From positions 1-64,000 of IMG/VR virus record IMGVR_UViG_3300005826_000001: a stretch of DNA of 64,000 nt; one strand, written 5' to 3'. This document shows positions 5,124-17,001 of the stretch, piece by piece. The stretch comes from an uncultured virus (IMG/VR IMGVR_UViG_3300005826_000001). Its lineage: Duplodnaviria; Heunggongvirae; Uroviricota; Caudoviricetes. The position numbers and the translations under genes were made by a program. How positions within the stretch are numbered: position 1 is the first letter of the stretch; every line of letters begins with the position of its first letter. Under the pieces are notes generated by a model, which saw only the letters and a program-made list of their open reading frames with translations, was not told the DNA's origin and ran no database searches.

Positions 5124-5877
5124 TCTGGGCGGCCAACGCATGTATGTGTGCGATTCATCGAGCGATGAAGAGCGGGCGCTGATCGGCAAGGACGCTCCGC
5201 ACTCGCACTACGCCATCCGCCGGCATGAGATTCACGCGGAGCTAGCCGCATTCCAAAAGGTGGCCGAGAAGGTGGGCAAGGTGGGGCGCGTGGTGGAACT
5301 GTTTGGCGGCTCCGGCTGGCACGCTTCCATCATCCAGCAGCTGTGCAAACCAAGGGCGCACCTGGCATTGGACATCGAGAAGGATTGCGTGATGTCCATC
5401 AAGCGATCGCTTCCGGACGTGAACGCCAGGGTCACAGACTCTTATGCTTTCATCGGTGAACAACCCAAACGGTATTGGGATTGGGTGCACGCCGATTTCA
5501 ATCAGCTCACATTCAACCGATTTCTGACCGAGAAGCGCTACATGGACGCGGTTGACGCCATCTTCAAGGCGTCCAAGAAGTGGGTGACGATCACCGACAG
5601 CGCCATTTTCGGATTGTCCCGATTCCCCAAGAACCGGGCGTCATACCACAAGTCCATCGGGATGCACCCTGATCACTGGCCTGACTACTTTCGGGTGGTG
5701 GCTCGGAAATACAAGGAGCGATACGACTTTGGCACACTTATGGTGGTGACGTGGCATCGGATGTCATCGATGTTCTTGCTTCAGCGGGGGGCTCCGCAAG
5801 GGGCGTTGGAGATTGAAGAAGTGCAGGACAAGGTGCCTGTTAAAGTGGTGAGAGAATTCAAGGAGATTGTGCGATGA
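5104..5877 (+). CDS. Class I SAM-dependent methyltransferase-fold protein
   Basis: Motif I VVELFGGSG, acidic end of strand 2 (LALDIE), TDSY and WDWVHADF motif-IV-like strand. Confidence 0.55.
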   Translation: MNITEIDLGGQRMYVCDSSSDEERALIGKDAPHSHYAIRRHEIHAELAAFQKVAEKVGKVGRVVELFGGSGWHASIIQQLCKPRAHLALDIEKDCVMSIKRSLPDVNARVTDSYAFIGEQPKRYWDWVHADFNQLTFNRFLTEKRYMDAVDAIFKASKKWVTITDSAIFGLSRFPKNRASYHKSIGMHPDHWPDYFRVVARKYKERYDFGTLMVVTWHRMSSMFLLQRGAPQGALEIEEVQDKVPVKVVREFKEIVR

Positions 5878-8741: not shown

Positions 8742-11700
8742 GTGTCAAAGGCTGAAGACTTTGTCCACTTGCACGTACACGCGGATATGAGCCAATTGGA
8801 CGGTTGCGGCAAGGTCGCCGACTATGTCAAGGCGACCAAGGAGCGCGGAGCGCCAGCCATCGCGATCACCGACCACGGCACGATGCGCGGATATTACCAG
8901 CAGCTGTTGGAGTGCCAGGAGCACGGCGTCAAGCCCATATACGGGATTGAATTCTATGTCGCGATGGACATGCATCGCAAGGGGATCACGCCTGAAGAGC
9001 GGGCGGAGATCACCCAGGGGATGAATCGCGCCGACGCCAAGAACGCCGTCAAGGGGTATGAGGAGCACTGGGGGATCCGGGACCGGTGGCACATCACCGT
9101 CTGGGCCAAGAACGCCGAAGGGCTCCGCAACTTGTATCGGCTGTCCACGATGGGCTGGACAGAGGGATTCTACTACAAGCCGCGCATCGACCTCAAGGCG
9201 CTGATGGAACACGGCGACGGATTGGCGGTTGCCACCGGTTGCTTGTCATCGCCGATCAACGACCGGGTTGCGACGGGCAAGAAGCGGATGGCATTGGCCG
9301 ACGCCGAGAAGCTGCGGGAGCGCTTCGGTGAAGACCTCTGGCTGGAGGTGCAACCGCACGCCATCGACGATCAACGGTTGGCCAACCAATTCGCATTGGA
9401 TCTCCGGGAGCGTTGGGGCAAGCACGCACGCCTGTTGGCGACGCAAGACGCCCACTATGTCGACCAGAAGGATGCCGACGCCCACGAGGTGATGCTCTGT
9501 ATCGGGACCGGGGACAGGATGTCCAACCCAGACAGGTTCCGCTTCGGCAACAATGAGTTTCACCTCCGGACTCGGGCGGAGATGAAGACAGCCTTCCAAG
9601 ATAACCATGAATTCATGTCTGACAAGGTCATCAAGGAGGCATTGGACAACACTCTGCTGTTCAATAGCATGATCGAGCCGAAGATCATCAACATCGACCG
9701 CTTCGCGTGCTTGATGCCGGCGCTTCGGCTCCCGAGTGAATATGGCGGATATGACGCCACAGATGCACAGCAGTATCAGTACCTGAAAGAGCTGTGCATC
9801 GGAGGTTGGAGCTGGCGGGATATCCCGAGCCGGGCAGCCGCCTATGCCCGCCGGATGAAGATGCCGCCGGCCCAAGCCGTCGCCATCTACCGGGACCGTC
9901 TGAAGATGGAATTGGGGGCGCTCAAGCGGCAGAGGTTCATCGGTTACTTCCTGCTGGTCCGAGACTTGTATGATTGGGTGCGACGCCAGAACATCGCCTG
10001 CGGGCCAGGGCGGGGCTCCGCCGCCGGTTCAATCGTCTCATTCCTGCTGGGCATCACCTCCGTGGACCCCATCGAGCACGGGTTGATCTTTGAGCGGTTC
10101 ATCTCACCCAGTCGTATCGACATGCCCGACATCGACATGGACTTTGAGGATGTGCGTCGCCAGGAGATCATCGACCACTTGCGTGAGAAGTATGGCGCCG
10201 ACAAGGTGTGTCAGATCGCGACAGTGGGTAAACTGTCAGGGAAGCAGTGCCTGAAGGATGTGTCCCGAGTCCTGGACGTGCCCTATGCCGAGGTGAACGC
10301 GGTCACCGCTTCGATCATCGAGCGGAGCAGCGGCGATGAGCGGGCCAGCCAGACCATTGAGGACAGCTTCGCTGAATTCAAGGTGTGTCAGGAATTCAAC
10401 GCGAAGTATCCAGACGTGCTCCGTCACGCCAAGCGGCTGGAGGGGATGGCCAAGACCCTCGGCATACACGCCGCCGGGGTGATTACATCACCGGTGCCGC
10501 TCACGGATCTGGTTCCATTGGAGATCCGGAAGCACGAGGGCAAGGATGTCGTGGTCAGCGCCATCGACATGTATGGCGTGGCGGCGATGGGGCTGCTTAA
10601 ACTCGATGTGCTCGGGCTCCGGACTCTGACCGTGTTGAACGACTGCGTGAAGGCGATCAAGGAGCGGCACGGGGTGGACATCGACTTGGAGAAGTTGGAC
10701 CTCAACGAGCCTGATGTGCTCCAGGGGTTCACAGACCATGACTATGTGGGGATCTTCCAATACGATTCCCCGGGCGCCGACAAGATTTGCTCAGGCGTTG
10801 AGTTCAACAACTTTGAAGACATCGCTGCGATGACAGCGCTGAATCGACCGGGCACCGCACGCTCGGGCTTGGCCACCCAGTACGTGGCGCGCAAAAAGGA
10901 CCCGAAGCTGATCAAGAAGTCAGCCTTTGGCCACCCGTTGGTAGATGAGATCACCAAGGACACCCTCGGGATCATCGTGTACCAGGAGCATGTGCTGAAG
11001 ATTTTCACACAGGTCGCCGGGTTCCCTCCGGCCACCGCTGACTCACTCAGGAAAAAGATCGCAAAGAAGTGGGGCGACGAGACTATTGGCAAGGAGCGTC
11101 AAAATTTCATCGAGGGCGCGAAGGCAACTTGCGGTATGGACGCCAAGACCGCTGGGCGGGTGATGGACGCGATAACTTTTTTTGGTTGTTTGCCCTCTTG
11201 TTCTTGCGTTGTCGTTTCGTTAGAAGCTAAACGAAACGACAACGGGAGTCAAGAGGATGCCGAAAGCCAAGCCAATAGGGAGCCGCCGACGCGACGGCAA
11301 ATACATGGATGTGAAGACAAAGAGGGGATGGGTGAGAGAGCATCGATGGCTCATGGAGCAGAAGATAGGCCGGCGGTTGACAAATCGGGAGCAAGTGATC
11401 CACAAGGACGGCGATCCGATGAACAACGACATCGACAATTTAGAGTTGACAACGGAGCGCGGCGCGCCAACTTGCAAGAAGAAAATTGGCGACAAGGGGA
11501 AGCAGAATGGTTACTTGACGATCAAGACGGAGAATGGCTGGGAGCTGGAGCACAGAGTGGCCATGGAAAAGATGATTGGTCGGAAGCTGTTGTCCAGAGA
11601 GATGGTGCATCATATCGACGGCGACACGACGAACAACACTCTGGACAATCTGGAGATAACAGCACGAGGGCCGCACACATCCTATCATCTGAAGGGCTCA

Positions 11701-13613
11701 AAACGGCAAGAGCCGATATGCATTTATTTGGGGTGCGGCAGAGTCACATACAGCAAGAACATGTGTTCGATGCATTATTCTCGGAGTTACAGGCTGAAAC
11801 GAAAGCAATCAGCGACTTGAAGCCAGGCGATTCAATCGTGTCCTTGGATTCCGAGGGGCGGCCAACCGAAAACAGAGTCAAGACGGTTGCTAGGACGGGC
11901 GTGCGTCGGCAATTCGACATCAAGCTCACAGGCGGCCAGACTCTTGCTTGCTCTCCAGATCATTGGTGGAATACCGACAAAGGGTGGATGAAAGCCAATG
12001 ATCTGTATCCGGGCGTGAGGATGTTGGCGTTGGGAAGCTCCGCCGTTGTGGTTGAAGTCCGAGATATCGGCGTGGAGTCGATGTGGGACATCGAGTGTGA
12101 GCACGGTGGTGAATTAGCCAACTATTTGGTCTGTTCCAAAGGTGCAAATCCTCAATATTTTCAATCACACAACAGCTATGGATTCAACCGCTCTCACGCT
12201 GTATGTTATGCAGTTATCGCCTATTGGGGGATGTGGCTCAAGCGGAAGTATCCGCTTGAATTCTACTGGGCGCTGCTCAAGAACGAGCCGCAGCGGCTCC
12301 GCATCCAGCAGATCGCAAAGGATGTCAAGCGCCACGACATCGAGCTGCTGCCACCCTCTGTGTCGATGTCCAAGAAGCAGTTTGCAATTGACTCGGGACG
12401 CAGGGCCATCCGGGGGAGTTTGGTTGACATCAAGGGTGTTGGTGAAGCGGCGGCGACAACGATCATGGAGAATCAACCTTACAAGGGGCTGTTTGACTTC
12501 CTTGCCCGCGTGGACCGGCGCAAGTGTCACAAGGGCGTGGTCTTGGCGCTGGCCCGCGCGGGAGCGCTCGATGAGATGTTGCCCAATATCAAGCAGTTCA
12601 TCGAGGGCATTGAAGACTTCTGGAAGGTGTACAACAAGAAGGACAAGGAGGGGCTTCGGGAGCTTCTGAAGCAATGGGCGGCGGAGCCCGACTATGCCGA
12701 TGAAGAGCGGCAGTTGATCGCGTCCCAGGTCAACCCTCTGGCCTTTGGGAAGCATCCAGTTGATGCATACGGGGACTTCATCTCCAAGAACATCAAGGTT
12801 CCAATCGCCGCCATGAGCGATGAAGACTTTTGGGTGAACAACGACGGAGCCGGAGTGTTCATCGTCGGCGTTGTTGTGGAGGTGAAGTACAACCAGGTGG
12901 GGGACTTTCACACAGGGGAGCTTCCGTCTGCTGAAGAGCGGCGGGACATGTTCTGGGGAGCGAGGTATGCGAATGTCAACGTGGAGGATGTCGGCGGGAA
13001 GCAGAACCGGATCAAGGTTGACTTTGACATCTTTGATGACTTCCGTGAGGTGGTTGACGCGGGCGTTGGGACCCCGGTGGTGGTTCACGCGTCGGCCAAT
13101 GCGCGGTATGAGAATTTGCGCGCCCATTTCCTATTGGATCTGGAAGTGTACCGCAAGAAGGTGAACGAGGGGGCACCGCTGACTGTCTGGGAGCGCATCA
13201 TAGCAGGCCAGCACCCGTCGGTGTCCTACCCTTGGGCCGACAAGCAGATCAAATACAAGGGCGCGGAGGGCGAAGTGGTCACGACGCTTCGCGCCAGCGC
13301 GATCACCAATCAGCTCTTTGAACTCGGGTTGAGCAGTTGGTTCACCGGGGTCATTACCCATGTGCGGTTGAAGTACGACAAGAACAGCAATGAAATGGCC
13401 TTTTTTGGCATCATCGACGGGATTGGCAACTACATCGATGTGATCTGCTTTGCGTCGGCATGGGACGCGAGTGCCAAGAAGCACATCAAGGCGGGCAATC
13501 ATCTCCGAATTCAGCTAGATCGCAAGAAAGACAGGAAAAGTTGGCAATATTTCTTGAACAACGGTGCGATCAAGCTCCTGAAAAAGTCAGCCAAACATGC
13601 GCGGGCTGCATAA
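8742..13613 (+). CDS. dnaE: DNA polymerase III alpha subunit (DnaE-type), intein-containing
   Basis: PHP motifs HLHVH/TDHG, GPGRGSAAGS, FERF, PDIDMDF, HAAG, KLDVLGL, YQE, FNRSH, IKGVG HhH and C-terminal OB fold. Confidence 0.95.
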   Translation: MSKAEDFVHLHVHADMSQLDGCGKVADYVKATKERGAPAIAITDHGTMRGYYQQLLECQEHGVKPIYGIEFYVAMDMHRKGITPEERAEITQGMNRADAKNAVKGYEEHWGIRDRWHITVWAKNAEGLRNLYRLSTMGWTEGFYYKPRIDLKALMEHGDGLAVATGCLSSPINDRVATGKKRMALADAEKLRERFGEDLWLEVQPHAIDDQRLANQFALDLRERWGKHARLLATQDAHYVDQKDADAHEVMLCIGTGDRMSNPDRFRFGNNEFHLRTRAEMKTAFQDNHEFMSDKVIKEALDNTLLFNSMIEPKIINIDRFACLMPALRLPSEYGGYDATDAQQYQYLKELCIGGWSWRDIPSRAAAYARRMKMPPAQAVAIYRDRLKMELGALKRQRFIGYFLLVRDLYDWVRRQNIACGPGRGSAAGSIVSFLLGITSVDPIEHGLIFERFISPSRIDMPDIDMDFEDVRRQEIIDHLREKYGADKVCQIATVGKLSGKQCLKDVSRVLDVPYAEVNAVTASIIERSSGDERASQTIEDSFAEFKVCQEFNAKYPDVLRHAKRLEGMAKTLGIHAAGVITSPVPLTDLVPLEIRKHEGKDVVVSAIDMYGVAAMGLLKLDVLGLRTLTVLNDCVKAIKERHGVDIDLEKLDLNEPDVLQGFTDHDYVGIFQYDSPGADKICSGVEFNNFEDIAAMTALNRPGTARSGLATQYVARKKDPKLIKKSAFGHPLVDEITKDTLGIIVYQEHVLKIFTQVAGFPPATADSLRKKIAKKWGDETIGKERQNFIEGAKATCGMDAKTAGRVMDAITFFGCLPSCSCVVVSLEAKRNDNGSQEDAESQANREPPTRRQIHGCEDKEGMGERASMAHGAEDRPAVDKSGASDPQGRRSDEQRHRQFRVDNGARRANLQEENWRQGEAEWLLDDQDGEWLGAGAQSGHGKDDWSEAVVQRDGASYRRRHDEQHSGQSGDNSTRAAHILSSEGLKTARADMHLFGVRQSHIQQEHVFDALFSELQAETKAISDLKPGDSIVSLDSEGRPTENRVKTVARTGVRRQFDIKLTGGQTLACSPDHWWNTDKGWMKANDLYPGVRMLALGSSAVVVEVRDIGVESMWDIECEHGGELANYLVCSKGANPQYFQSHNSYGFNRSHAVCYAVIAYWGMWLKRKYPLEFYWALLKNEPQRLRIQQIAKDVKRHDIELLPPSVSMSKKQFAIDSGRRAIRGSLVDIKGVGEAAATTIMENQPYKGLFDFLARVDRRKCHKGVVLALARAGALDEMLPNIKQFIEGIEDFWKVYNKKDKEGLRELLKQWAAEPDYADEERQLIASQVNPLAFGKHPVDAYGDFISKNIKVPIAAMSDEDFWVNNDGAGVFIVGVVVEVKYNQVGDFHTGELPSAEERRDMFWGARYANVNVEDVGGKQNRIKVDFDIFDDFREVVDAGVGTPVVVHASANARYENLRAHFLLDLEVYRKKVNEGAPLTVWERIIAGQHPSVSYPWADKQIKYKGAEGEVVTTLRASAITNQLFELGLSSWFTGVITHVRLKYDKNSNEMAFFGIIDGIGNYIDVICFASAWDASAKKHIKAGNHLRIQLDRKKDRKSWQYFLNNGAIKLLKKSAKHARAA
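11207..11244 (+). promoter_or_regulatory. Perfect 15-bp stem hairpin adjoining the RBS of the nested HNH gene
   Basis: CGTTGTCGTTTCGTT (11207-11221) is the exact reverse complement of AACGAAACGACAACG (11230-11244), followed by GGGAG...AGAGG ATG. Confidence 0.65.
11257..11820 (+). CDS. Tandem HNH homing endonuclease overprinted in the +1 frame of the intein
   Basis: Two EHRxxME..IGR.L...E.V(I/H)H.DGD..NN..DNLE repeats and a C-terminal CxxxxC...C..HY; has its own RBS and ATG. Confidence 0.85.
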   Translation: MPKAKPIGSRRRDGKYMDVKTKRGWVREHRWLMEQKIGRRLTNREQVIHKDGDPMNNDIDNLELTTERGAPTCKKKIGDKGKQNGYLTIKTENGWELEHRVAMEKMIGRKLLSREMVHHIDGDTTNNTLDNLEITARGPHTSYHLKGSKRQEPICIYLGCGRVTYSKNMCSMHYSRSYRLKRKQSAT

Positions 13614-13643: not shown

Positions 13644-14147
13644 ATGTCAGACGATACAAAGGTCATTTTGGGCGTGTCGGATATCGCCAAGGCGGTTGGC
13701 GTCCACAAGGATCAAATTCAAAAGACGTTCGAAGTCATGTTGGAGTTGCTGACCAAGAGCACTGAATTGCGAGTCCACAAGTTTGGGACGTTCAAGCGCA
13801 AGCTCATGAAGGGCCGCACGATCACGTCGCCAGTCCTGGAGGGTGGCTCTATCACCTACGGTGACAAGTGGGTGCTCAATTTCTCCGCACACGCGAGTGC
13901 CAAGCAGTGGCTGAATGCCAAGCTACCGATTGAAGCACCCGAGAAGCCAAAGGCCAAGAAGTCTGGAACCAAGAAACCAAAGGGCAAGAAGCCCAATAAG
14001 ACTGAGCCGGCGGAGGTGAAGTCCGAGGTACAACCCAAGTCCGAGCCTGCAAAGGCAGCCAAGGAAGTCAGCAAGGCAGCCAAAGCGGCGCCAAAGGCGA
14101 AGGGTGGCCCGCGCAAAGCGTCTGGCGGTGTCAAGAAAGCGAGCTGA
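13644..14147 (+). CDS. HU/IHF-like DNA-binding protein with Lys/Ala/Pro-rich tail
   Basis: LRVHKFGTF...GR...P...F arm motif; strong AGGAGG RBS. Confidence 0.75.
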   Translation: MSDDTKVILGVSDIAKAVGVHKDQIQKTFEVMLELLTKSTELRVHKFGTFKRKLMKGRTITSPVLEGGSITYGDKWVLNFSAHASAKQWLNAKLPIEAPEKPKAKKSGTKKPKGKKPNKTEPAEVKSEVQPKSEPAKAAKEVSKAAKAAPKAKGGPRKASGGVKKAS

Positions 14148-14661: not shown

Positions 14662-14710
14662 CGCTGCGGGACGATTGAATACATCAGCACCAGTTCAAGG
14701 AGAGTGAGTG

Positions 14711-15904
14711 ATGGCCGTTGATATGGGGCGTATGCGCAAGGGCTATGAGGCGCAGCAGCGCGGCGGGGACTTCTGGGCTCCGCCCGAGGGGGACACTTTG
14801 GTGTACATCCATCCTCCCTGTAGGGATGACGATGAGCACCCGCCCACAGCCGGGCTCAACTATGTGCCCGTCACCGTCCACTTCGGGGTGGGCAAGAACA
14901 ACGGGATGGTGGTATCATTGGACACCGACGCCAACCCGGTGATCAAGCATCCATTTGTCAAGGCATTTTTGCGCAAGAAAAAGGGCTTCAAGCTCCCGTC
15001 GGAGTGTCCGATGGCTGAAGCACTTCGGACGGGTCAATTGAGCGATGAAGAGGCAGACAACGCTCGTCCACAGTCTCGTTTTCTGTGGGGCGTCACGCCG
15101 TTGAAGCATCGTCGCGCCAAGTCGGAGCCGTGGCAGAAATTGCCGGAGAAACCAGCCGTGCTCATGTGCGGCAAGACGGTGTATGAGGGGTTGATGGAGC
15201 TGTTCTTTGACAACGGCGACATCACTGATCCAGACGCCGCGATATTGGCCAGAATCAGCCGCGAAGGGCGCGGAAAGAATGACACCAAATACAAGGTCCA
15301 GGCTGACACCGAAAGCCTCAAGAAGCCTGTGAAGTTGTCCAAGGAGCTGCGCAAGAAGATCCTGAAGGCGATGGCTGAGAATGGCGATTGCGACCTGTTT
15401 AAGCTGGTCGCCAACATGGTCAAGACTCCACAGGATATCCAGGCGATGATCTCTGGCGTGAAGCTAGATGACGCCGACGATGATGCCTTTGGTGACGACG
15501 ACGATGAGAACGGCGACGACGATGAGAACGACGACGCCGACGATGACGACGATGAGAACGACGCCGACGATGACGACGACGCCGACGATGACGACGCCGA
15601 CGATGACGACGCCGACGACGCCGACGATGACGACGCCGACGACGATGAAGGTGACGACGCCGACGACGACGCCGACGATGAAGGCGACGATGAAGGCGAC
15701 GATGATGATGAGCCGGAGCCCGAGCCTGTGAAGCCGCCGAAGCAGGGCAAGAAAGTTGTGGTGTCCAAGACCAAGAAACAGGACGATGACGACTTGGGGC
15801 TGGACGCGCTGGATGCCGAGTTGGATCGGATCTCCGGCGGCAAAGGCAAGGACAAGGCCAAAACTAAGGCCAAGGGCGGCAAGAAGGGCGGCAAGAAGGG
15901 CTGA
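14711..15904 (+). CDS. Single-stranded DNA-binding protein (T4 gp32-like) with a very long acidic tract
   Basis: FW.P..G...V.I.PP, CP, DITDP, I.REG.G..DTKY pattern; Asp-rich tract; located before recA. Confidence 0.65.
   Translation: MAVDMGRMRKGYEAQQRGGDFWAPPEGDTLVYIHPPCRDDDEHPPTAGLNYVPVTVHFGVGKNNGMVVSLDTDANPVIKHPFVKAFLRKKKGFKLPSECPMAEALRTGQLSDEEADNARPQSRFLWGVTPLKHRRAKSEPWQKLPEKPAVLMCGKTVYEGLMELFFDNGDITDPDAAILARISREGRGKNDTKYKVQADTESLKKPVKLSKELRKKILKAMAENGDCDLFKLVANMVKTPQDIQAMISGVKLDDADDDAFGDDDDENGDDDENDDADDDDDENDADDDDDADDDDADDDDADDADDDDADDDEGDDADDDADDEGDDEGDDDDEPEPEPVKPPKQGKKVVVSKTKKQDDDDLGLDALDAELDRISGGKGKDKAKTKAKGGKKGGKKG
15470..15710 (+). repeat. Low-complexity GACGAC/GACGAT/GACGCC coding repeat
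   Basis: Encodes about 80 residues of D/E/A within the SSB gene. Confidence 0.8.
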
Positions 15905-17001
15905 TGCCAAAGAAGACTGCCACCAAGAAGCAGGTGGCGGTGGCGACTCCAGAAGCACCCGGCGGCGAAGCGGCCATCAAGCTAGACTTCGCCACCGGGG
16001 TGCTGGATAGCATACGCTCCAAGCTGGGCGACGATAGCGCCATGTTGCTCGGGAGCGATGGGCTAGCCATCAAGATCCGGGGCGTCATCTCCACACAGTG
16101 CGCGACCATCGACGCGGCCATTGGACGCGGCGGCATCCCACGCTCCCGTCTCACGCTGCTCCACGGCATGGAGGGCTCCGGCAAGACCACGCTTGCGCTG
16201 CACATCGTCGCTGAGACGCAGCGGCTCGGAGGGGTGGCAGTCTACATCGACAAAGAGTACAAGCTGGACCCTGACTACGCTCGGGCCATCGGGGTGAACA
16301 TTGATCAATTGGTGCTAGCCCAGCCGCCGCACTTGGAGTCGGTGTTTGCGACGTGTGAAGGGGTCATCGAGCGAGCGGCGGAGCTGCGCAAGGGCGGGGA
16401 ACGCATCCCAATCCTCATCGTGTTGGACTCGATGAACGCGGCCATCACCAAGGCGCAGTATGAGGGCGAGTGGGAGGACAAGCACATGGCGCCGCAGGCA
16501 CGAGTCTACTCGGAGCTGTTACCGAAGCTCATGCCCAAGGTGTCCAAAGAAGATGTGGCCCTTCTGTGGATCAGCCAGGTGCGAAAGAAGATGGTGATGT
16601 TTGGCAATGACACCGAGACTGCCGGCGGCAACGCGCCCAAATTCTATGCGAGCCTACTCCTGGATGTCCGGCGTGTGGCGACCAACAAGGACTCCGACGG
16701 CGAGAAGGTGGCCAATAAACTTGTGGTTGAATGCAAGAAGAATCAGATTGCGCCGCCGTTTCGCAAGGCGGAAGTGCTGATTGACTATGGTCACGGGATC
16801 AACCAGGAGCAAGCTCTGGTCGCCCAGGGCGTGGCCGACGGGATCATCAAAAAGGCGGGCAACGCCTATGAATACAAGGGCGAGAAATTGGGCGGCCAGG
16901 GGCTCCCTGCCGCCGCCAAGGCGCTGAAAAAGGACACCGAGAAGCGGGATGCCATACACAAGGAGCTGTACAAGCGATGGCAAAGCGGGACAGCTCCTTG
17001 A
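15904..17001 (+). CDS. recA: RecA/UvsX recombinase
   Basis: Walker A GMEGSGKTT, IVLDS, AxQAR, SQVR and TAGGNAPKFYAS, KN.IAPPF. Confidence 0.95.
   Translation: MPKKTATKKQVAVATPEAPGGEAAIKLDFATGVLDSIRSKLGDDSAMLLGSDGLAIKIRGVISTQCATIDAAIGRGGIPRSRLTLLHGMEGSGKTTLALHIVAETQRLGGVAVYIDKEYKLDPDYARAIGVNIDQLVLAQPPHLESVFATCEGVIERAAELRKGGERIPILIVLDSMNAAITKAQYEGEWEDKHMAPQARVYSELLPKLMPKVSKEDVALLWISQVRKKMVMFGNDTETAGGNAPKFYASLLLDVRRVATNKDSDGEKVANKLVVECKKNQIAPPFRKAEVLIDYGHGINQEQALVAQGVADGIIKKAGNAYEYKGEKLGGQGLPAAAKALKKDTEKRDAIHKELYKRWQSGTAP

Follow-up and report, generated by a model that had tools for sequence, protein, structure and literature searches.

Here we describe a class-1 intein in the dnaE-like DNA polymerase III alpha gene of an uncultured virus of the Caudoviricetes (IMG/VR IMGVR_UViG_3300005826_000001), whose coding sequence is overprinted in the +1 reading frame by a gene for an HNH endonuclease. 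The window, i.e. the whole stretch of DNA that was analysed, comprises positions 1 to 64,000 of a viral record of 78,231 bases with an estimated completeness of 74%. We consider it very likely that the arrangement is a dual-coding mobile element, in which a class-1 dnaE intein carries an HNH gene of the free-standing type in the loop after its residue 13. The anatomy of the element can be read directly from the DNA, and reshuffling of the HNH codons demonstrates that the dnaE frame is selected to remain open across the overprinted gene. The dual-coding reading had already been put forward in a first-pass annotation made from the sequence alone, and it is supported by the results presented here, with splicing and nuclease activity as its inferred parts. 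The features of the element are as follows.

8742..13613, + strand: dnaE-like DNA polymerase III alpha gene, an uninterrupted open reading frame (ORF) of 1623 codons, intein included
11181..11271, + strand: long RNA hairpin with a perfect core of 15 bp (11207-11221 / 11230-11244)
11187..12173, + strand: class-1 intein, 329 codons (987 nt), from Cys1 to His-Asn, with Ser+1 at 12174
11187..11225, + strand: first Hint strand(s), intein residues 1-13 (CLPSCSCVVVSLE), placed by alignment; predicted local distance difference test score (pLDDT) of 96 for residues 1-10
11226..11798, + strand: host-frame spacer, residues 14-204; 191 codons, hydrophilic, no stops, low-confidence model
11244..11248, + strand: Shine-Dalgarno-like GGGAG, 8 nt before the HNH ATG
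11257..11820, + strand: HNH endonuclease gene (PF13392) read in frame +1; 187 codons and a TGA stop
11341..11460, + strand: first HNH_3 repeat, HNH residues 29-68, the best Pfam stretch
11548..11670, + strand: second HNH_3 repeat, HNH residues ~98-138, the second Pfam stretch; coordinates by eye
11719..11805, + strand: C-terminal Cys/His motif (C..GC...C..HY.R.YR..R); C155, C160, C170 and H173 are kept in the relative P0009
11799..12173, + strand: Hint domain after the spacer (residues 205-329), containing block B (SPDH) and ending in SHN

The intein and the gene overprinted in it

The dnaE product of 1623 residues contains PHP, DNA_pol3_alpha, finger and HHH_6 domains according to Pfam. When the 78-kb record was searched with three polymerase families, one match to PF07733 and none to PF00476 or PF00136 was obtained. 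The junctions of the intein, which begins with CLPS, read ...ITFFG/CLPSCSCVVVSLE...QSHN/SYGFNRSH (slashes mark the splice sites), and we take this site to lie two residues upstream of the cyanobacterial split-DnaE junction. The class-1 nucleophile is the Cys at 11187-11189. Block B of inteins is defined by a [T/S]xxH motif, which is present here as SPDH, and the C-terminal His-Asn is followed by Ser+1 (SHN/S at 12165-12176). In an alignment of the window element with 11 other inteins from the same site, C1, H259 of SPDH, H328 and N329 are invariant in all 12 sequences. A Pfam search with the intein gave a weak PT-HINT match (E 0.002) below the cut-off.

An AlphaFold model of the intein was built on the 12-intein alignment. 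Its block-mean pLDDT is 96 for residues 1-10, 29-60 for residues 21-190, with the spacer stretches 31-75 and 100-188 below 50, and 81-98, mostly at least 89, for residues 201-329. Foldseek retrieved 59 PDB chains with this model at E <=0.001, the top ones being intein splicing domains with TMt values of 0.70-0.75 (e.g. 2in0, E 1.7e-8, TMt 0.75). Residues 1-13 and 200-329 are predicted to form the Hint fold, and the spacer is of low confidence. Residues 1-13 of the window align with CIPGESLVLVVEG of the related allele L022 and with CLEKSTEVLTPTG of the mini-intein L053. Taken together, the alignment, the model and the Foldseek matches locate the spacer in the turn after the first 13 residues. 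A first Hint strand at the end of the spacer (DALFSEL...) was also considered; it is ruled out by the alignment with L022 and the mini-inteins and by the model, which put this strand at residues 1-13. The spacer (11226-11798) matched no family in a Pfam search. The insert is absent from the usual position of intein endonucleases between blocks B and F, where the window intein looks like a mini-intein. Thus, the first-pass description of an intein with its Hint blocks and with about 190 motif-less residues inserted some 13 residues after Cys1 proved accurate.

The ORF in the +1 frame matches PF13392 (HNH_3) over two stretches with an E value of 2.2e-19 and 69.2 bits (cut-off 24.8). The catalytic motif of HNH enzymes is His...Asn...His/Asn. 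It is complete in the second repeat, as HH...NN...N...H, which reads VHHIDGDTTNNTLDNLE...H and is conserved in P0009. This relative, a separately called protein of 201 residues, is 48% identical over HNH residues 5-183 and has the same architecture, sharing the second HNH repeat and the Cys/His motif with the window protein. The last codons of the Cys/His motif overlap the resumed Hint sequence, and the same motif is N-terminal in the HNH family of the alleles L022 and L027. Upstream of the HNH gene the +1 frame is closed by a TAG at 11221-11223, which rules out a frameshift fusion of HNH and DnaE, a possibility that was also considered. The HNH gene ends with a TGA (11818-11820) that lies across the Leu-Lys codons of AISDLKPGD, the point at which the Hint sequence resumes. 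The +1-frame protein of 187 residues with two HNH domains, its own ribosome-binding site and ATG, and a TGA at the point of resumption (SDLK) is therefore present as annotated, with GGGAG as the likely ribosome-binding site.

The model of the HNH protein has a pLDDT of 64-92 over residues 1-135. With respect to the beta-beta-alpha-metal fold of HNH enzymes, the best match of this model among 48,161 PDB representatives (VIA-align) is the homing endonuclease I-HmuI (1u3e; Z 6.0, root-mean-square deviation 4.1 A over 71 residues), followed by I-PpoI with Z 4.6. The HNH sequence gave no match in the PDB at E <=0.01. A nucleotide search of a phage collection yielded no relatives of the element, and the C-terminal Hint part returned only its own protein from a protein collection. 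Scans with the window Hint, the L022 HNH protein and an alignment of the window HNH protein with P0009 led only to known contigs or to distant single-domain HNH genes; a word-indexed protein search with the HNH protein gave six partial and no full-length matches among 23 candidates. The 187-residue HNH ORF (11257-11817) itself was not among the matches from a collection of 5.8 billion proteins, in which the enclosing DnaE is listed. Standard gene calling does not see overlapped nucleases of this kind.

Related alleles and the constraint on the two frames

In order to place the element among its relatives, 96 related dnaE loci were collected from viral and metagenome contigs (17 and 79, respectively). 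Both extein flanks were matched in 77 of them; L111 was dropped because of a short N-extein match, leaving 76 rows with 63 distinct sequences. FFG-SYGFN is uninterrupted in 45 of these 63 distinct loci, four have inteins only at neighbouring sites, and 14 rows with 13 distinct inteins are occupied at the G/S site. Three of these inteins are mini-inteins with no insert (L053 with 138, L074 with 147 and L031 with 154 residues). In the other ten, the host frame is open and an HNH gene occupies the +1 frame; these are the inteins of the window, L022/L024, L027, L052, L060, L071, L076, L079, L082 and L085. Inteins with and without the insert thus exist at one and the same site, and the mini-inteins together with the separately called P0009 support the earlier proposal that a free-standing HNH gene invaded a mini-intein.

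Each HNH start codon is preceded by a Shine-Dalgarno-like motif, e.g. taGGAGGcaaaaATG in L052 and L060. Nine of the ten HNH genes belong to one family, in which an N-terminal Cys/His motif precedes the HNH domain; its members in L022 and L027, for which Pfam reports HNH/HNH_3, exceed the cut-off of PF01844 and share 51% identity. The double HNH_3 gene of the window is of a different architecture and has only the Cys/His motif and the HNH core in common with that of L022. The HNH gene lies in the canonical region in eight sister alleles and after residue 13 in the window and in L022. The stop codon of the window gene falls on Leu-Lys codons homologous to those of L022.

The constraint on the dnaE frame was assessed by synonymous reshuffling of the HNH codons. 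With the codons of the window gene, the dnaE frame remained open in none of 20,000 trials and contained 7.5 stops on average; the real third frame contains 14 stops across the gene. The host frame stayed open in 2 of 20,000 trials for L022 and in 0 of 20,000 for L027, and in 0-25 of 5,000 trials across the nine alleles that were shuffled. The tenth allele, L071, was read by eye and likewise has a +1 HNH gene over an open host frame. Thus, the open dnaE frame is selected and not a product of chance, and the statement that this frame is kept free of stops extends to all nine shuffled alleles, with the tenth read as open. In the converse test on the window, in which the host codons were shuffled, the +1 ORF remained open in 304 of 20,000 trials.

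The HNH gene is in the +1 phase in all ten alleles. From the genetic code it follows that a host-frame stop in this phase requires an HNH codon ending in T and a subsequent codon starting with AA, AG or GA, so that a silent T-to-C change in an HNH codon can erase every such stop. Since every NNT codon has an NNC synonym, an open host frame comes at no cost to the HNH protein.

Furthermore, selection in both frames was examined as identity per frame in a codon alignment of the eight alleles with Zn motif and HNH domain (28 pairs, mean nucleotide identity 0.52). Averaged over the 28 pairs, amino-acid identity amounts to 0.47 when the HNH frame is read, compared with 0.24 for the host frame and 0.25 for the third frame, which is unused. 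The HNH gene is under purifying selection in the sister alleles. The identity of the host frame is at noise level and close to that of the third frame, arguing that the spacer is constrained only to lack stops.

Assembly, mobility and competing explanations

An ordinary in-frame HNH intein flanked by two compensating assembly or sequencing frameshifts might produce a similar picture, and the window does come from a metagenomic viral contig. Seven runs hold part or all of the stretch, all of them labelled metatranscriptomic, derived from estuary samples and served as contigs; the strongest holder, X1, contains the entire stretch and may be the source of the window itself. However, a second, longer contig (105 kb) is identical to the window over 6,561 bases. 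Contigs of X2 and X3 cover positions 11093-11682, thus crossing the 5' junction and the HNH start, and X4 covers 12118-12452 and crosses the 3' splice junction, in each case without any difference, indel or joined form; positions 11683-11973 are covered only by X1 and the second contig. In addition, the +1 frame is closed by the upstream TAG and has its own Shine-Dalgarno motif and ATG, and the same phase is found in nine other diverged alleles. An artefact of this type is therefore highly improbable, and an assembly frameshift is not supported.

Removal of the insert at the RNA level, by a group I or other intron that carries the HNH ORF and for which the open dnaE frame would be incidental, is likewise something we would hardly expect. 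Phage group I introns commonly carry HNH genes, as exemplified by I-HmuI, the best structural match, and Rfam models can miss introns with large ORF inserts. On the other hand, no Rfam intron family was found at E <=10 in 10500-12800, where seven weak matches are unrelated, and the ORF takes up all but about 70 nt of the insert. The inserts have lengths divisible by three, and shuffling shows the host frame of nine independently diverged alleles to be open against the odds; the tenth was read as open by eye. As an intron would not need an open host frame, these ten open lineages count against it. The contigs of the RNA-labelled libraries hold the unspliced form and show no joined form, although contigs cannot prove its absence.

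The distribution of the intein among the relatives is patchy. On an extein tree of 59 rows, obtained with a quick method and with at least 95% support for 16 of its 55 inner branches, 12 changes are required to explain the 13 rows with an intein, which does not fall below the mean of 11.9 for shuffled labels, and the well-supported branches alone force at least five changes. The occupied allele L052 and the empty allele L055 are 95.5% identical in their flanking DNA over 2.7 kb on each side, and the nearest extein relative of the window, L078 (81%), has an empty site. The codon for Ser+1 is AGY in 7 of 13 occupied and 1 of 37 empty alleles (Fisher p 1.2e-4), and that for Gly+3 is GGA in 11 of 13 and 13 of 37, respectively (p 0.003), the rows being related, so that these p-values are only indicative; twelve empty rows were excluded from the counts owing to offset junction coordinates. 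The codon pattern of the flanks is what would be expected from co-conversion during homing.

The start of the HNH gene coincides with a long hairpin of -46.7 kcal/mol (z -8.5; none of 200 shuffles as stable), which pairs both GGGAG and the ATG and whose 5' arm encodes the first strand of the intein. Rfam sees it only in the form of miRNA-like hairpin matches. A comparable hairpin masking the ribosome-binding site was sought in L022 and L027 and was not found (z -0.1 and -0.3). One may speculate that the hairpin of the window acts as a brake on HNH translation that is opened by ribosomes translating dnaE. A scan of 10800-12300 for sigma-70-like promoters found none, with 1.0 expected, which is no evidence either way for phage promoters; in the same region two terminator-like sites (1.4 expected) are present on the minus strand only. 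As a separate observation, a T TTT TTT heptamer at 11177-11183, in dnaE phase ACT TTT TTT, lies 9 nt upstream of this very stable hairpin (taken here as 11192-11258), as in textbook -1 frameshift signals. A stop at 11228-11230 closes the -1 frame, so that slippage would truncate DnaE just past FFG. The heptamer is not conserved (ACG TTC TTT in L022, ACT TTT TTC in L027) and may thus be a coincidence.

According to the dual-coding reading, ribosomes would read dnaE through the 987-nt intein, including the 191-codon spacer constrained only against stops. Residues 1-13 and 205-329 would then come together as the Hint domain, leaving the spacer as a loop, and this domain would splice out both itself and the spacer, restoring FFG-SYGFNRSH. 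The HNH protein would be translated separately from its own Shine-Dalgarno motif and ATG, with the hairpin that masks them probably keeping its level low or coupling its synthesis to ribosomes passing through dnaE. In a mixed infection, the HNH protein may cut or nick an intein-less dnaE allele near the insertion site, and repair from the occupied allele would copy the intein and the HNH gene together, along with a few flanking codons.

Several points weigh against this reading. The occurrence of splicing and of HNH translation, the site of cleavage and the function of the hairpin are inferred, and the hairpin is not part of a general design, as it is missing in L022 and L027. The frame-conservation test concerns the sister family with Zn motif and HNH domain, whereas of the double HNH_3 gene of the window there is only an identical copy, and P0009 is the one close relative of its product. 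The first HNH_3 repeat lacks, by eye, the last His of the motif, the Z score of 6.0 for I-HmuI is middling, and Foldseek gave no PDB match for the HNH model at E <=0.001. The extein tree comes from a quick search and lacks support for 15 of its 55 branches, and the Fisher tests suffer from the relatedness of their rows. X1 may be the source of the window, and contigs from RNA-labelled libraries permit no conclusion on either transcription or the absence of a spliced form. Finally, among 14 inteins engineered with the S1 split between beta2 and beta3, which leaves an N-fragment of 10-12 residues, ten failed to splice, although the four that were active speak for a certain tolerance of a break at this place (PMC3620165).

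Some of these points would also fit an HNH gene that is a decaying relic, whose +1 ORF is no longer made or active, so that only the open dnaE frame matters now. The incomplete first repeat, the very stable hairpin burying Shine-Dalgarno motif and ATG, the promoter-like sites missing from 10800-12300 and the lack of sequence variants of the window HNH gene for measuring selection are all compatible with such decay. Nevertheless, the +1 ORF of 187 codons is intact, in spite of being open in so few of the host-codon shuffles, and P0009, at 48% overall identity, retains the second repeat and the Cys/His motif. Moreover, the HNH frame is clearly the conserved one in the sister family, and the polymorphism of occupied and empty sites among near-identical exteins points to recent mobility. 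We consequently regard a relic as unlikely and favour the dual-coding mobile element.

The loci collected for this work contain further inteins. A second insertion site, FNK/SH, lies five codons downstream of the first, inside the same conserved motif, and is occupied in L030, L048, L062, L031 and L071. The inteins of L030, L048, L031 and L062 at this site have an in-frame HNH domain (CxxC...H...N...CxxCH) and start with Thr and not with Cys or Ser, which suggests a class-3-like type. That of L071, its second intein, is a mini-intein. The dnaE gene of L031 (= L058; 4787-6961) contains three inteins within about 25 extein residues, i.e. the mini-intein at G/S, an in-frame HNH intein at K/S and a third intein with a large middle domain at YW/C; an intein of the YW/C type occurs alone in L081 (~910-1900). 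The polymerase stretch around G/S, K/S and YW/C is thus an intein hot spot. In L062 (2401-3262), the N- and C-extein matches are in different frames, and the translation runs into an X and then ends inside the in-frame HNH intein, probably owing to an assembly gap or frameshift in the contig. The otherwise identical L022 and L024 differ at 9 of 12 bases just past the intein (locus positions 5703-5714), which gives ATAYGIIAYW in one C-extein and ATEFDRVAYW in the second; either the assembly is locally wrong or a short patch beside the homing site has been replaced. Downstream of dnaE, the window contains a 398-residue ORF (14708-15904) in which the C-terminal half is made up of little but Asp/Glu runs and then a tail rich in Lys. 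Its neighbours are a small Lys/Ala-rich protein (13644-14147) on one side and an ORF for a RecA-like ATPase (15904-17001) on the other.

Known systems and meaning of the element

The kind of element described here is already known from work of 2025-2026, its layout having first been published in 2025. According to the preprint by Gosselin, Arsenault & Gogarten (bioRxiv 10.1101/2025.01.02.630785), inteins of cultured actinobacteriophages can carry the endonuclease in a frame separate from the splicing domain. On the same strand, an endonuclease VII-like gene occupies 'frame 3' of the canonical endonuclease region; antisense LAGLIDADG and VSR-like genes are also described, the hosts are DNA polymerase, minor capsid, terminase and thymidylate synthase genes, and the authors propose that inteins were invaded by free-standing endonuclease genes. 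As in these elements, the splicing domain in the window is in the extein frame and the endonuclease ORF in another frame of the same DNA, the intein frame is free of stops, the in-frame middle is without recognisable structure, and the distribution is patchy. Unlike those elements, the window has a double HNH_3 gene in the +1 frame, in the dnaE gene of an uncultivated phage and after intein residue 13; its ORF does not lie between blocks B and F, and Pfam gives only HNH_3 and not an endonuclease VII-like family.

An out-of-frame endonuclease is also reported for a cyanobacterial dnaX intein (Phillips et al., bioRxiv 10.64898/2026.09.14.751524). That intein likewise resides in a replication gene, is read as the result of a secondary invasion of a mini-intein, and occurs sporadically alongside intein-free alleles, but its host is cellular and the gene is dnaX. 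Out-of-frame HNH genes hidden in phage methylase ORFs, with no intein, have been described as ShiLan domains (Arsenault et al. 2025, PMC11855218). They share with the window a stop-free host ORF, a stop codon at the end of the insertion and no detectable intron. However, they have no Hint domain and no detectable ribosome-binding site, and the peptide read in frame is presumed to be retained by the methylase, whereas in the window the intein is predicted to be able to remove the spacer, and each HNH gene of its family of alleles has a Shine-Dalgarno-like motif. Thus, the precedent that had been suspected for out-of-frame intein endonucleases is found in these three sources.

In the fractured genes of Dassa et al. 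(2009, PMC2677866), a free-standing endonuclease gene lies between the halves of a split intein and thus, as in the window, inside the intein coding region of a phage-type replication gene. There the host consists of two ORFs and trans-splicing is needed, whereas the host gene in the window is a single continuous ORF of 1623 codons that is kept open. The natural atypical split inteins AceL-TerL and GOS-TerL have N-fragments of 25-37 residues (PMC11766414). Like the engineered S1 splits, they resemble the window intein, with its insert after residue 13, in that the backbone is interrupted near the N-terminus; these are true breaks into two polypeptides, and no endonuclease gene is reported at the break in the accessible parts of the respective papers. 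I-HmuI (PDB 1u3e) is, like the predicted window protein, an HNH homing enzyme, and it targets a Bacillus phage DNA polymerase gene by nicking, but it is encoded in an RNA intron and has a single HNH domain. In our literature search we came across no published intein with an HNH_3 gene in its beta2-beta3 loop, although preprint full texts or supplements could list one. The present element differs from the published ones in the HNH_3 nuclease, the dnaE host, the insertion in the beta2-beta3 "S1" loop and the hairpin masking the HNH start.

Beyond the element itself, we tentatively raise the possibility that the HNH genes are exchangeable cassettes adapted to inteins and that the window represents a contiguous precursor of the natural atypically split inteins, although we do not regard this as probable. 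Such an interpretation is supported by the occurrence of one HNH family (51% identity between L022 and L027) at two positions in two Hint backbones, by the unrelated HNH architectures of the window and L022 that end on the same Leu-Lys codons of the same loop, and by the presence of all ten genes in the +1 phase, in which silent T-to-C changes suffice. If it is true, a single stop codon in the spacer would create an AceL-TerL-like split with a very short N-fragment, and the hairpin of the window would couple HNH translation to the passage of ribosomes through dnaE.

Overall, the element is a clean natural case of an asymmetric overlap, in which one frame is kept for its protein and the other only against stops, and the ten diverged alleles make this asymmetric constraint measurable. 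Our results extend the out-of-frame layout to HNH enzymes, to dnaE as a host gene in uncultivated phages and to another point of insertion, and they support the view that splicing came first and the invasion by free-standing endonuclease genes later. The loop after residue 13 is also where engineers cut inteins in order to obtain very short N-fragments. The apparent tolerance of 191 extra residues at this position suggests a permissive insertion site and a possible origin of the natural atypical split inteins.

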